A stretch of 64,000 nucleotides of DNA from Treponema sp. (lineage in GTDB: Bacteria; Spirochaetota; Spirochaetia; Treponematales; Treponemataceae), in assembly GCF_024691105.1 (NCBI RefSeq), contig NZ_JAILNY010000020.1; one strand, written 5' to 3'. Made by a program: the position numbers and the translations under genes. Numbering within the stretch: the stretch's first letter is position 1; each line of letters starts with the position of its first letter. Shown in pieces: positions 8,393-10,130 of this stretch. Under the pieces are notes generated by a model. It was not told the DNA's origin. It saw nothing but the letters and a program-made list of their open reading frames with translations, and searched no databases.

Positions 8393-9562
8393 ATGTATTC
8401 AGAAAGTGAAGTTTTAGACTATGTAAAAGAAGAAGATGTTAAATTCGTCAGACTCGCTTTTTTTGACTTAAAAGGAACACAAAAAAATATATCAATCATG
8501 GCTTCTCAGCTTGAGTCCGCTTTTAAAAACGGAGTCAGCTTTGACGCGTCAGCCGTTTACGGTTTTGAGTCCCCGGAAAAGTCAGACCTCTTTCTGCACC
8601 CGGATGCAACTACCCTTTCTGTTCTTCCGTGGCGACCAAATACAGGAAAAGTTGTCCGAATGTTCTGTACAATAAAACACGCAGATGGAACACCATACAA
8701 AAAAGACTGCCGCACACTTTTAAAAAACGCAGTAAAAAAAGCACGAGAAGAATACAACGTTGAATTCCGCTTTGGAACAGAAATTGAATTTTATCTTTTT
8801 AAGCTGAACGAAAAAGGCGAGCCTACAAAAATTCCTTTTGACAACGCAGGCTACATGGACATTGCCCCGGAAGACAAAGGCGAAAACATCCGCCGCGAAA
8901 TCTGCTTTACACTTGAACAGATGGGCATTCAGCCGGAAGCAAGTCACCACGAAGAAGGCCCGGGTCAGAACGAAATTGACTTTCACTACTCTGACGCGCT
9001 TAGTGCCGCAGACAATGCTGCAACCTTTAAATGGATTGTACGAACCCGCGCTTCGATGAACGGTCTTTACGCTGACTTCTCTCCAAAGCCGCTTGAAAAT
9101 CAGGCAGGAAGCGGATTCCACATAAACATTTCCTGCTCAGATGATTCCAAAATGAATAATATCCTTGCAGGAATTTTAGCTCACATAAAAGAAATTACTT
9201 ACTATATGAACTGCACGGAAAATTCTTATAACCGTCTTGGTGAATGCAAAGCTCCGCGCTACATCGCATGGGGAAAAGAAAACCGTTCAACCTTTATCCG
9301 TGTTCCGGCAACAACCTCACAGGATTCTCAGCGTTTAGAGATTCGTTCTGCAGATTGTGAATGCAATGCATATACAGTTTTTACACTTTTAATTCATGCA
9401 GCACTCGACGGAATAAAAAACAATATGACGCCGCCTGATAATGTAACAGAAAATCTTTTTGAAAATACTTCTTCAAAGCTTGAAACTCTTCCAGATACAT
9501 TGGATACTGCAAAAGAATTTGCACAGGACAGCCAATTTGTAAAGGACGTACTTGGATTCTAG
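8393..9562 (+). CDS. glnA: Glutamine synthetase type I-like protein, short (389 aa), Glu-flap altered
   Basis: SFDAS, GTEIEFYLF, HHEEGPGQNEIDF, PKP..GSGFHIN, ENRSTFIRVP, RLEIRS; GGAGG RBS before ATG 8393. Confidence 0.85.
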   Translation: MYSESEVLDYVKEEDVKFVRLAFFDLKGTQKNISIMASQLESAFKNGVSFDASAVYGFESPEKSDLFLHPDATTLSVLPWRPNTGKVVRMFCTIKHADGTPYKKDCRTLLKNAVKKAREEYNVEFRFGTEIEFYLFKLNEKGEPTKIPFDNAGYMDIAPEDKGENIRREICFTLEQMGIQPEASHHEEGPGQNEIDFHYSDALSAADNAATFKWIVRTRASMNGLYADFSPKPLENQAGSGFHINISCSDDSKMNNILAGILAHIKEITYYMNCTENSYNRLGECKAPRYIAWGKENRSTFIRVPATTSQDSQRLEIRSADCECNAYTVFTLLIHAALDGIKNNMTPPDNVTENLFENTSSKLETLPDTLDTAKEFAQDSQFVKDVLGF

Positions 9563-9563
9563 T

Positions 9564-10130
9564 ATGACAGACGAAACTCATACCGTCCTGGTTGTTACAA
9601 AAGATTCAAAACTTTCCTCATCAATGTGCGCAATGCTTATTCCGCCGCTTTTTGAAACAGAAATTCTTTCTGACTTTAACGAAGCACGCCGTAGAATTTC
9701 TGAGCGAAACTACAACATTGCCTTAATCGATTATGCAGAAGGCGATGGCGCAGAATTTGCAATTGATGCGGCAGACTCTTTAACAACGATTCTGCTTTTT
9801 ACACCGACGGAACATTTTGAAGAAGTAAGCTATAGAGTTGAAGCCTACGGAATTATCACGGTCACAAATCCATTTGACCAGTTTTATTTTTACAACATGA
9901 TAAAGGCTGCGATTGCAGTTCAATATAAAGTACAGATTCTTTCAAGCCAGACAACAAAGCTTAAAGTTAAGATGGAAGAAATCCGCGTTGTAAACCGCGC
10001 AAAGATGCTTCTCATGCAGAATATGAGTATGACTGAACAGGAAGCACACCGCTATCTTGAAAAAGAAGCAATGGACAACGGCTTAAAGCGAATTTCTGTT
10101 GCTGAAAAAATCATCAAAAAGTACGGTTAA
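9564..10130 (+). CDS. ANTAR-domain antiterminator with pseudo-receiver domain (NitR/AmiR-like)
   Basis: C-terminal RVVNRAKMLLMQNMSMTEQEAHRYLEKEAMDNGLKRISVAEKII. ATG is 1 nt after the glnA stop. Confidence 0.88.
   Translation: MTDETHTVLVVTKDSKLSSSMCAMLIPPLFETEILSDFNEARRRISERNYNIALIDYAEGDGAEFAIDAADSLTTILLFTPTEHFEEVSYRVEAYGIITVTNPFDQFYFYNMIKAAIAVQYKVQILSSQTTKLKVKMEEIRVVNRAKMLLMQNMSMTEQEAHRYLEKEAMDNGLKRISVAEKIIKKYG

Follow-up and report, generated by a model that had tools for sequence, protein, structure and literature searches.

We analyzed a 64,000-nucleotide (nt) stretch of DNA from a Treponema sp. (contig NZ_JAILNY010000020.1 of assembly GCF_024691105.1; hereafter, the window), in which two adjacent genes on the plus strand encode a protein derived from type I-alpha glutamine synthetase (GSI-alpha; GS, glutamine synthetase) and a small NitR-like ANTAR protein. 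The GS-like gene (8393..9562) specifies 389 amino acids. Its ATG at 8393 lies inside a longer, mechanically called open reading frame (ORF; 8312-9562) and is preceded by GGAGGA, and the encoded protein ends in DVLGF, ahead of a TAG stop at 9560-9562. The ANTAR gene (9564..10130), which encodes 188 amino acids, starts with an ATG at 9564, one base past that stop. One promoter and one leader lie ahead of both genes, and no terminator is found between them. In the window, the pair is flanked by genes for an amino acid ABC transporter, PurF and a methyl-accepting chemotaxis protein. The closest proteins and loci carry the names Treponema sp., T. bryantii, Treponema sp. JC4 and C6A8, all pointing to the T. 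bryantii group of the rumen and gut, while an identical-sequence look-up found no record of the exact GS-like sequence.

Assignment of the GS-like protein was based on its ORF, on Pfam and NCBIfam matches and on alignment to GSI-alpha. Pfam detects both Gln-synt_N (PF03951, E 2.2e-24) and Gln-synt_C (PF00120, E 6.2e-80), the latter over profile positions 2-314 of 344. The GlnA equivalog model TIGR00653 is covered over positions 2-430 of 462, with a score of 352.8 bits that falls below its cut-off of 429.15. The closest solved structures are GSI-alpha enzymes (e.g., 7tdv, E 3.8e-95), on which the AlphaFold2 (AF2) model of the protein superposes with a TMq of 0.93, and the alignment to the 7tdv-type enzyme ends at residue 415 of 449. 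For residue numbering, we used B. subtilis GS (identical in sequence to PDB 4s0r_A), to which the protein is 43.8% identical. Residues 257-271, V300, 374-375, 378-380 and 412-444 of this reference have no counterpart, such that a block of 15 internal residues and the last 33, corresponding to the C-terminal helices, are absent. These helices we take to contribute to ring-ring packing in the B. subtilis enzyme. The canonical GlnA flap, NSYKRLVPGYEAP, with its Glu, is also absent. The flap instead reads NSYNRLGECKAP, is one residue shorter and carries Lys at the position of the flap Glu (B. subtilis E304). Nonetheless, the metal ligands and active-site Arg residues (E132, E134, E189, E196, H245, E333, R316, R321 and R335) are all present in the window protein. 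An initial annotation of this locus, made from the sequence alone, had reported the length of 389 residues, the DVLGF end without the usual helices, the exchange of the flap Glu for Lys and the single nucleotide between the two genes, and the ORF, the alignment to 4s0r_A and the family data below bear out each of these.

To consider how general this arrangement is, we rely on a genome scan that yielded 80 loci from distinct species-level Treponema/Spirochaetaceae genomes, with GS-like proteins that are 64-82% identical to the window protein and 385-410 amino acids in length. The deletions seen in the window protein are found in about 98-100% of this family, with residues 412-444 being absent in about 98%. 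Among the 81 GS-like proteins of the Treponema family, position 304 is Lys in 78, His in 3 and Glu in none, R62 is variable, H195 is replaced by Asn in 80 and N240 is replaced by Ala or Pro, while E333 is Glu in 70 and Gln in 11. All 79 testable loci have an ANTAR gene directly 3' of the GS-like one, the 80th locus stopping 2 bases past the GS match. The two genes are separated by -1 to 57 nt, with most loci having a gap of no more than 4 nt. As truncation, flap change and pairing recur in 80 species-level genomes, they cannot be ascribed to chance or to an assembly artefact.

The ANTAR protein was described by Pfam, AF2 and Foldseek as a degenerate receiver followed by a coiled-coil helix and an ANTAR three-helix bundle. 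The ANTAR domain is recognized over profile positions 2-54 of 54 (PF03861, E 1.2e-15), and Pfam gives no match to Response_reg at E<=0.01. In the AF2 model (pLDDT 90), the (beta/alpha)5 receiver fold is formed by strands 6-11, 30-35, 52-56, 75-80 and 98-101 and the intervening helices, and is followed by a long helix (106-154) and two shorter ones (158-172 and 176-187). Foldseek matches include Rv1626, EutV (TM 0.78, RNA-bound 6ww6_B) and AmiR (TM 0.68), as well as CheY-like receiver domains. The strings VVTKDS and VTNPF occur in the receiver-like region, and residue conservation there was counted over 75 Treponema orthologues. The acidic pair after beta1 reads K13-D14, of which D14 is conserved in the Treponema clade. 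At position 102, the site of the conserved Lys after beta5, the window protein has Asn, and the orthologues have Ser (29), Thr (16) or Asn (15). At position 80, the Thr/Ser site after beta4, Thr (33), Ala (21) and Val (9) are found. Moreover, where distant GS-like genes have an ANTAR partner, its acceptor position is taken by Asn or Cys. Considering the degenerate sites together with these Asn and Cys residues, the family appears to be one of pseudo-receivers. Thus, the loss of the acidic pair and of the conserved Lys that the initial annotation had read from the two strings is confirmed, although a retained aspartate, D56, was overlooked there.

The initial annotation also stated that no kinase is adjacent, and this holds: neither in the window nor in the annotated distant loci does a histidine kinase gene lie beside the pair, the 80 Treponema loci not having been screened for kinases. 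In two of the distant loci (L088/L089), the lone nearby HisKA_3 gene is paired with its own GerE-type regulator. The nearest HisKA protein in the window, 23 kb from the pair, is a 1258-amino acid hybrid (33486-37262, plus strand) with GGDEF, EAL, PAS, HisKA, HATPase and receiver domains, and it holds the sole histidine-kinase domain among the 15 window ORFs scanned with Pfam.

Ahead of the operon, a sigma-70-type promoter (8271..8299, plus strand; TTGACA, a 17-nt spacer and TACAAT) matches the consensus in 11 of 12 positions and predicts a transcript start at about 8305-8307. Within a few nucleotides of this predicted start begins a candidate antiterminator hairpin, P1 (8309..8328, plus strand; covariance model 19.3 bits, E 0.013), in which the arms AAUGUGC and GCUCAUU enclose the hexaloop AAAGGC, with A at position 1 and G at position 4 (A1, G4). 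P1 is overlapped by an intrinsic terminator (8316..8374, plus strand) consisting of a hairpin at 8316-8370 and a run of seven U residues at 8368-8374. This terminator, assigned by folding energy, has a stability of -25.3 kcal/mol and a z-score of -5.8, with 0 of 200 shuffled sequences being as stable, and the end of its U-run lies 18 nt before the GS-like start codon. Two further leaders in the window, both on the minus strand, share this organization. In the purF leader (11649..11714), a P1 variant, GAC-GAAGAC-GUC, overlaps a terminator of -26.6 kcal/mol with a U-run (covariance model 18.8 bits, E 0.018, match 11691-11714), and a TTGACA box lies at 11744-11739. In the gltB leader (22957..23029), P1 (ACGGC-AAAGAG-GUCGU, 23025-23010, -6.4 kcal/mol) overlaps a terminator of -36.9 kcal/mol (23020-22966) followed by nine U residues, with a promoter just upstream (covariance model 29.6 bits, E 1.9e-5, match 23006-23029). 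The P1 loop and 3' arm double as the 5' arm of the terminator, such that the two folds are mutually exclusive. The isolated P1 of the GS-like leader is worth only about -3 to -4 kcal/mol, and across the window leaders P1 amounts to -3 to -6 kcal/mol, compared to -25 to -37 kcal/mol for the terminators. As P1 is weak relative to these strong terminators, termination should be the default and read-through should require a factor that stabilizes P1. This RNA side of the system, namely the leader hairpins and the genes that they precede, is an addition to what the initial annotation had described.

P1 was found as a recurrent element upon aligning the upstream regions of the 80 loci. Its consensus hexaloop is AAAGRS, with the closing C-G pair and G4 being invariant and A1 and A2 being conserved in at least 90% of copies. 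Over 66 distinct copies, the stem shows compensatory changes, with GC in 43 and AU in 20 at one pair and CG in 29, GC in 19 and UG in 6 at another. The covariation score of 0.547 compares with 0.241 for column shuffles (reached in 0 of 500), and sliding the partner columns gives at most 0.195. It should be considered that the copies were pre-selected for at least 4 pairs, which inflates the percentage of paired positions, although the variety of pair types is unaffected. When scored over the whole window without filtering, the covariance model returned three matches at E<0.02, namely the gltB, GS-like and purF leaders, all of them members of the training set. The next best match is clearly set apart from these, at 12.8 bits (E 0.82). 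The model also detects leaders in two distant loci outside the training set, ahead of the GS-like, GSIII (type III GS) and amt-PII genes in L083 and ahead of pyrG and GSIII in L086. A strict scan found a same-strand upstream element in 54 of the 80 loci, which is a lower bound, since visible variants in some of the remaining loci escape the filter. A search of the whole window against Rfam gave no match that reached the gathering threshold, and the leader had none at E<=10.

Other features of the leaders are less constant. The stem of the terminator's apical hairpin is conserved only in one leader type ('CAUUC') and is otherwise variable, with no conserved loop. A tetraloop register of P1, corresponding to the minimum free energy fold of the isolated hairpin of the window, was rejected for the family, the control with a slide of -2 pairing only 30.5% of cells. 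When complete leaders were aligned with MAFFT and folded with RNAalifold, no P1 pairs other than the three inner ones emerged, as the two leader types misalign, and an anchored alignment was used instead. In contigs of related strains from public runs, window positions 8181-8313 are replaced by about 115 unrelated nt, while the leader is kept from 8314 on, with one base absent at 8368.

The genes that follow these elements are nearly uniform in function. In the window, besides the GS-like operon, they are purF (10198..11598, minus strand, convergent with the ANTAR gene), which encodes an amidophosphoribosyltransferase identified by Pfam GATase and Pribosyltran matches and by 79% identity to a TIGR01134-positive orthologue, and gltB (22935-18388, minus strand; NF008730, 1527.8 bits), which encodes the large subunit of glutamate synthase (GOGAT). 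The gene for the small subunit, gltD (18347-16743, minus strand), was identified by Pfam and tblastn. Considering the window and the loci together, 71 of the 72 elements with a downstream ORF precede nitrogen or glutamine genes, with GS-like/ANTAR (23) being the most frequent, followed by pyrG (18), carB (7), asnB (6), carA (5), gltD (4), GSIII (4), purF (2), urtA (1) and gltB (1). This tally points to a regulon centered on glutamine. The urtA element (L017, 9041, plus strand) precedes the gene of a urea ABC transporter binding protein, and in L083 an element (1514-1537, minus strand) precedes an Amt-PII fusion gene, suggesting that the regulon reaches nitrogen uptake.

Beyond Treponema, we performed an exhaustive search of representatives of 50%-identity clusters. 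The nearest approximately 100 clusters comprise divergent GSI-alpha-like proteins of 370-445 amino acids with highly variable flaps. Among 97 representatives with a non-canonical flap, E132 is kept in 53, H245 in 51, R316 in 43 and E333 in 52, whereas all four residues are kept in 9 of 9 representatives with a canonical flap. Genomic context was looked up for ten clusters, of which nine were informative, one contig being too short. In 8 of these 9 (48-59% identity, plus one near-canonical GS), an ANTAR gene lies directly 3' of the GS-like gene, with GSIII, amt-PII, asnB, gltB, pyrG, purF and glutamine-dependent NAD synthetase among the neighbors. The co-occurrence of GS-like and ANTAR genes, which the initial annotation had advised surveying for flap-less GS, extends from the Treponema loci to distant clusters. 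The near-canonical case is P0273, a GS of 445 amino acids with an ANTAR gene next to it. At the other extreme, four ANTAR-linked proteins have lost the active site, these being P0248 (E132Q, H245R, R335Q), P0244 (D53N, E132A, R316S, R321T, E333K), P0250 (E132S, H187R, R316Y, E333I) and P0253 (H245D, R321L, E333K). As the pairing persists in these four, the role that is conserved in the pair is not catalysis. Given the distant clusters with the pair and the P1 leaders in L083 and L086, the module of GS-like gene, ANTAR gene and hexaloop leader is, judged from sequence comparison, old and widespread. The top of the representative search was taken by two giant putative proteins, P0241 (4424 amino acids) and P0242 (2757 amino acids), which contain 12 and 6 GS-like stretches, respectively.

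Several relatives also encode a separate GS close to the pair, in the form of a GSIII of 699-701 amino acids (PF12437, PF00120, PF18318) that tblastn located within 6 kb. One of them is the isolate Treponema sp. C6A8, in which the short GS shares 81% identity with the window GS-like protein, and the others are T. porcinum ATCC BAA-908 and three further genomes. The database name of the protein is 'glutamine synthetase III [Treponema porcinum]'. Its sequence is better conserved than that of the short GS, with 84-87% identity to T. porcinum GSIII among the Treponema matches listed outside T. porcinum, compared to 64-82% for the short GS over the 80 loci. GSIII itself carries the P1 leader in L058 (9737 and 9801, plus strand), L079 (10284 and 10204, minus strand) and L002 (4182, minus strand). 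In L058, which is T. porcinum, and in L079 the leader stands in tandem, which suggests a two-step attenuator.

From these observations, we lean, by a modest degree of confidence, towards the interpretation that the pair makes up an antitermination system of the NitR type, with the GS-like protein as a nitrogen or glutamine sensor that restrains the antiterminator. According to this model, each leader would by default fold into its stable terminator and transcription would stop. The ANTAR protein, as a dimer, would bind and stabilize P1, thereby blocking the terminator, and the gene would be read through. The GS-like protein, encoded directly upstream and presumably translationally coupled, would set the activity of the ANTAR protein. 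It may retain the GS ligand pocket for metals, ATP and glutamate or glutamine, and could sequester the antiterminator when glutamine is plentiful and release it when glutamine is scarce. The operon would autoregulate via its own leader. The leader-bearing genes of relatives also include amtB-glnK. The initial annotation had proposed that the GS fold acts as sensor or partner of the antiterminator rather than as an enzyme. The first part of this proposal is now considerably better supported than by the sequence alone, given the invariant pairing, the dead-site homologues, GSIII in relatives, the degenerate receiver, the lack of an adjacent kinase, the glutamine regulon and the effect of a GS deletion in C. 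thermocellum discussed below. The second part, that the protein is not an enzyme, is not established, as the metal ligands and Arg residues are kept.

Some points weigh against this interpretation and should be considered when referring to it. E132, E134, E189, E196, H245, R316, R321 and R335 are kept in 80-81 of the 81 Treponema GS-like proteins and R298 is likewise near-invariant, which suits ligand binding and a working enzyme equally well. Mutants of the flap Glu, such as B. subtilis E304A and E. coli E327A, keep measurable activity. The check for another GS that the initial annotation had advised gave a divided answer, as neither Pfam nor tblastn finds a GSIII in the 64-kb window, although one lies within 6 kb of the pair in close relatives. 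In the receiver, the phospho-acceptor equivalent D56 is kept in 74 of 75 Treponema orthologues and would allow for phosphorylation or for the use of a small-molecule phosphodonor. No second A1/G4 hexaloop is conserved upstream or downstream of P1 in either leader type. One distant representative with a flap Lys, P0249 (L081, 4001-5149, 382 amino acids), has no ANTAR neighbor. Finally, the binding of P1, the contact between the two proteins and the ligand are all points that we infer, the ligand and the sign of the response by analogy with Clostridium and Bacillus. As to P0249, its active site is dead (H187Y, E189G, E196K), the gene before it encodes an aminotransferase and a GSIII is encoded at a distance of 2.6 kb.

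The main rival to the sensor interpretation holds that the GS-like protein still works as a GS, or combines both jobs as a trigger enzyme. Judged by the residues present, this is quite possible, as the metal, ATP and glutamate site is intact. Were the protein a working, perhaps feedback-resistant GS that is co-transcribed with the regulator, like glnA with nitR in solventogenic clostridia, the ANTAR protein would have to sense nitrogen otherwise, through a receiver-bound ligand, PII or an unlinked partner, and this form of the rival we regard as a serious though rather unlikely one. The conserved site residues of the 81 Treponema proteins and the TM of 0.93 between the AF2 model and active GSI-alpha fit it well, the near-canonical, ANTAR-linked 445-amino acid GS demonstrates that enzyme and regulator can coexist, and placing GS and GOGAT in one regulon is metabolically sensible. 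Furthermore, the glnA gene of C. acetobutylicum P262, which lies beside nitR, complements an E. coli glnA mutant. Yet four distant lineages have kept the pairing after losing their catalytic residues, none of the 81 Treponema proteins has the flap Glu, N240 and H195 are changed family-wide, the C-terminal helices are gone and the score is under the GlnA equivalog cut-off. The relatives hold a better-conserved GSIII, and the near-universal translational coupling would be left unexplained. A different catalytic role, in which the protein would be a gamma-glutamyl ligase for another amine in the manner of PuuA, GlnA3 or GmaS and the ANTAR gene an unrelated neighbor, seems extremely improbable to us. 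Changes in the flap and in the Asp50 loop are typical of GS-like enzymes that take larger amines, and there is a weak NCBIfam match to gamma-glutamylputrescine synthetase (194 bits, with a cut-off of 650). The GlnA model, however, fits better (352.8 bits), no genes of polyamine or amine catabolism are near in the 80 loci, where the neighbors are instead pyrG, carAB, asnB, purF, gltD and GSIII, and members with a dead site retain the ANTAR partner.

Two further alternatives concern the regulator and its target. The ANTAR protein might be a response regulator of the ordinary kind, with an unlinked histidine kinase or acetyl phosphate phosphorylating D56 and the GS-like protein having no part in signaling. 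Although the Treponema clade conserves D56 and D14, the receiver fold is present and the phosphorylatable EutV is among the best structural matches, we find this very improbable, given that Lys takes the place of the first acidic residue, that the conserved Lys is missing and the Thr varies, that the acceptor is Asn or Cys in distant partners and Response_reg goes unmatched, and that no kinase is paired with the module in the window or in the annotated distant loci. It is also improbable, if slightly less so, that the leader is not an ANTAR target at all and is read by another factor or acts as a metabolite riboswitch. In favor of such a reading are the single hexaloop, in place of a dual motif, and the lack of a matching Rfam family. 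However, the conserved core consists of a 6-nt loop and its closing pair with A1 and G4, which is the minimal ANTAR target (PMC8934654), and a riboswitch is disfavored because such a core is too small for a ligand pocket. In addition, unrelated lineages have the element together with the GS-like/ANTAR module, and the ANTAR operon itself bears it.

The sensor interpretation can be compared to several known systems. ANTAR targets were described as A1/G4 hexaloops that overlap terminators, often 5' of nitrogen genes (PMC3369931), and on the basis of EutV-RNA structures the minimal target was redefined by the authors as a single hexaloop (PMC8934654, Walshe 2022). In C. saccharobutylicum, NitR is an ANTAR protein that induces GS and GOGAT on nitrogen limitation by a mechanism that is 'not fully understood' (PMC6316151). 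In C. thermocellum, Clo1313_2030 is a REC-ANTAR protein (PMC4676874) that adjoins the only type I-alpha GS, Clo1313_2031, and GOGAT (2032-36), with three GSIII genes elsewhere (PMC9888227). Our pair resembles this clostridial glnA-nitR(glnR)-gltAB arrangement (C. saccharobutylicum NCP262; C. thermocellum Clo1313_2030-2036) in that a GSI-alpha gene stands beside a small REC-like/ANTAR gene; there, too, GS and GOGAT are subject to antitermination on nitrogen limitation and extra GSIII genes are present in the genome (PMC6316151, PMC4676874, PMC9888227). The two are very probably homologous systems. Nonetheless, the GS partner in Treponema is truncated (389 amino acids), lacks the flap Glu and scores below the GlnA cut-off, the order is GS-like gene followed by ANTAR gene with one base between them, and glutamine amidotransferases are also part of the regulon (purF in the window; pyrG, carAB and asnB in relatives). 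An antisense-RNA layer, for which no search was made here, has been described in the clostridial system, in which the sensor of NitR is still undefined. According to the account of Rydzak 2017 given in PMC10967112, deletion of the type I GS of C. thermocellum caused a nitrogen-starvation response with de-repressed nitrogen genes, even though glutamine and 2-oxoglutarate rose. This is the phenotype to be expected if GS restrains the antiterminator at high glutamine.

With AmiC-AmiR of Pseudomonas aeruginosa and NasS-NasT of Paracoccus denitrificans, in which an adjacent ligand-binding partner holds a non-phosphorylated pseudo-receiver ANTAR protein inactive until released by the signal, our pair shares a degenerate receiver and an adjacent partner gene (79 of 79 loci) that is predicted to be co-transcribed. 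AmiC and NasS, however, have a periplasmic-binding-protein fold and sense amides or nitrate, whereas the candidate partner here has a GS fold and a presumed glutamine or nitrogen signal. A comparable case is found in B. subtilis, where a GSI-alpha signals how much glutamine is present by binding to TnrA or GlnR, both gene regulators. R62 and E304, both of which are changed in the Treponema family, are key to the feedback state of that enzyme. In B. subtilis, the regulators are of the MerR type and bind DNA, and the GS is active and of full length, in contrast to the putative RNA-binding target and the degenerate GS fold described here. Finally, EutV/EutW of Enterococcus faecalis offers the same architecture of REC, coiled coil and ANTAR, EutV being the best structural match, and in its leaders, too, a hairpin with an A1/G4 hexaloop is set against a terminator. 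EutV, however, is phosphorylated by the kinase EutW and uses dual hairpins, whereas here we find no adjacent kinase, a degenerate acid pocket and a single hexaloop.

To our knowledge, three features are undescribed in the literature that could be searched, namely a truncated sensor candidate derived from GS, an attenuator with a single hexaloop and a regulon centered on glutamine. Neither glutamine nor a GS partner comes up in a 2025 review of RNA-binding antiterminators, and our literature searches turned up no account of a complex between GS and an ANTAR protein. In the reviews consulted, the way in which nitrogen is sensed by NitR-type antiterminators is still called not fully understood, despite the long-known clostridial glnA-nitR linkage. 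If the GS-like protein is indeed the receptor, both this sensing and the puzzling C. thermocellum deletion phenotype would be explained, and the family would offer a natural series from enzyme to pseudoenzyme sensor. We go further only with belief and doubt in even balance, proposing that a GSI-alpha-derived clade, ranging from active enzymes to dead pseudoenzymes, may be the missing glutamine or nitrogen receptor of NitR-type ANTAR proteins in gut anaerobes such as Treponema and clostridia-like lineages, acting by direct sequestration on a single-hexaloop regulon that spans nearly all enzymes that produce or consume glutamine, with the Treponema protein representing an intermediate stage from enzyme to sensor. 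The leaders would form a compact and predictable RNA switch in abundant rumen and gut spirochaetes, one hexaloop hairpin against one terminator, governing GS and GOGAT, the uptake of urea and ammonium, and the glutamine amidotransferases that serve the synthesis of nucleotides and asparagine. The leader motif is directly usable for annotating nitrogen regulons in metagenomes.

Two additional observations concern genes around the regulon. Amino acid ABC transporter operons at 5825-8106 and 23125-26445, both on the minus strand, adjoin the GS-like operon and gltB, respectively, and the leader model has no match at E<=10 within or upstream of either. A family-3 binding protein is encoded at 7345-8106, the remaining genes of these operons having been annotated by eye. 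In L006 (2623-4349), L010, L014, L016, L031 and other loci, an ORF of 541-558 amino acids corresponds to the C-terminal half of the large subunit of carbamoyl-phosphate synthetase (NF003671 positions 549-931) as a separate gene, and this split ORF has its own short leader variant, 'aagtCAAAGGCGacat...'.

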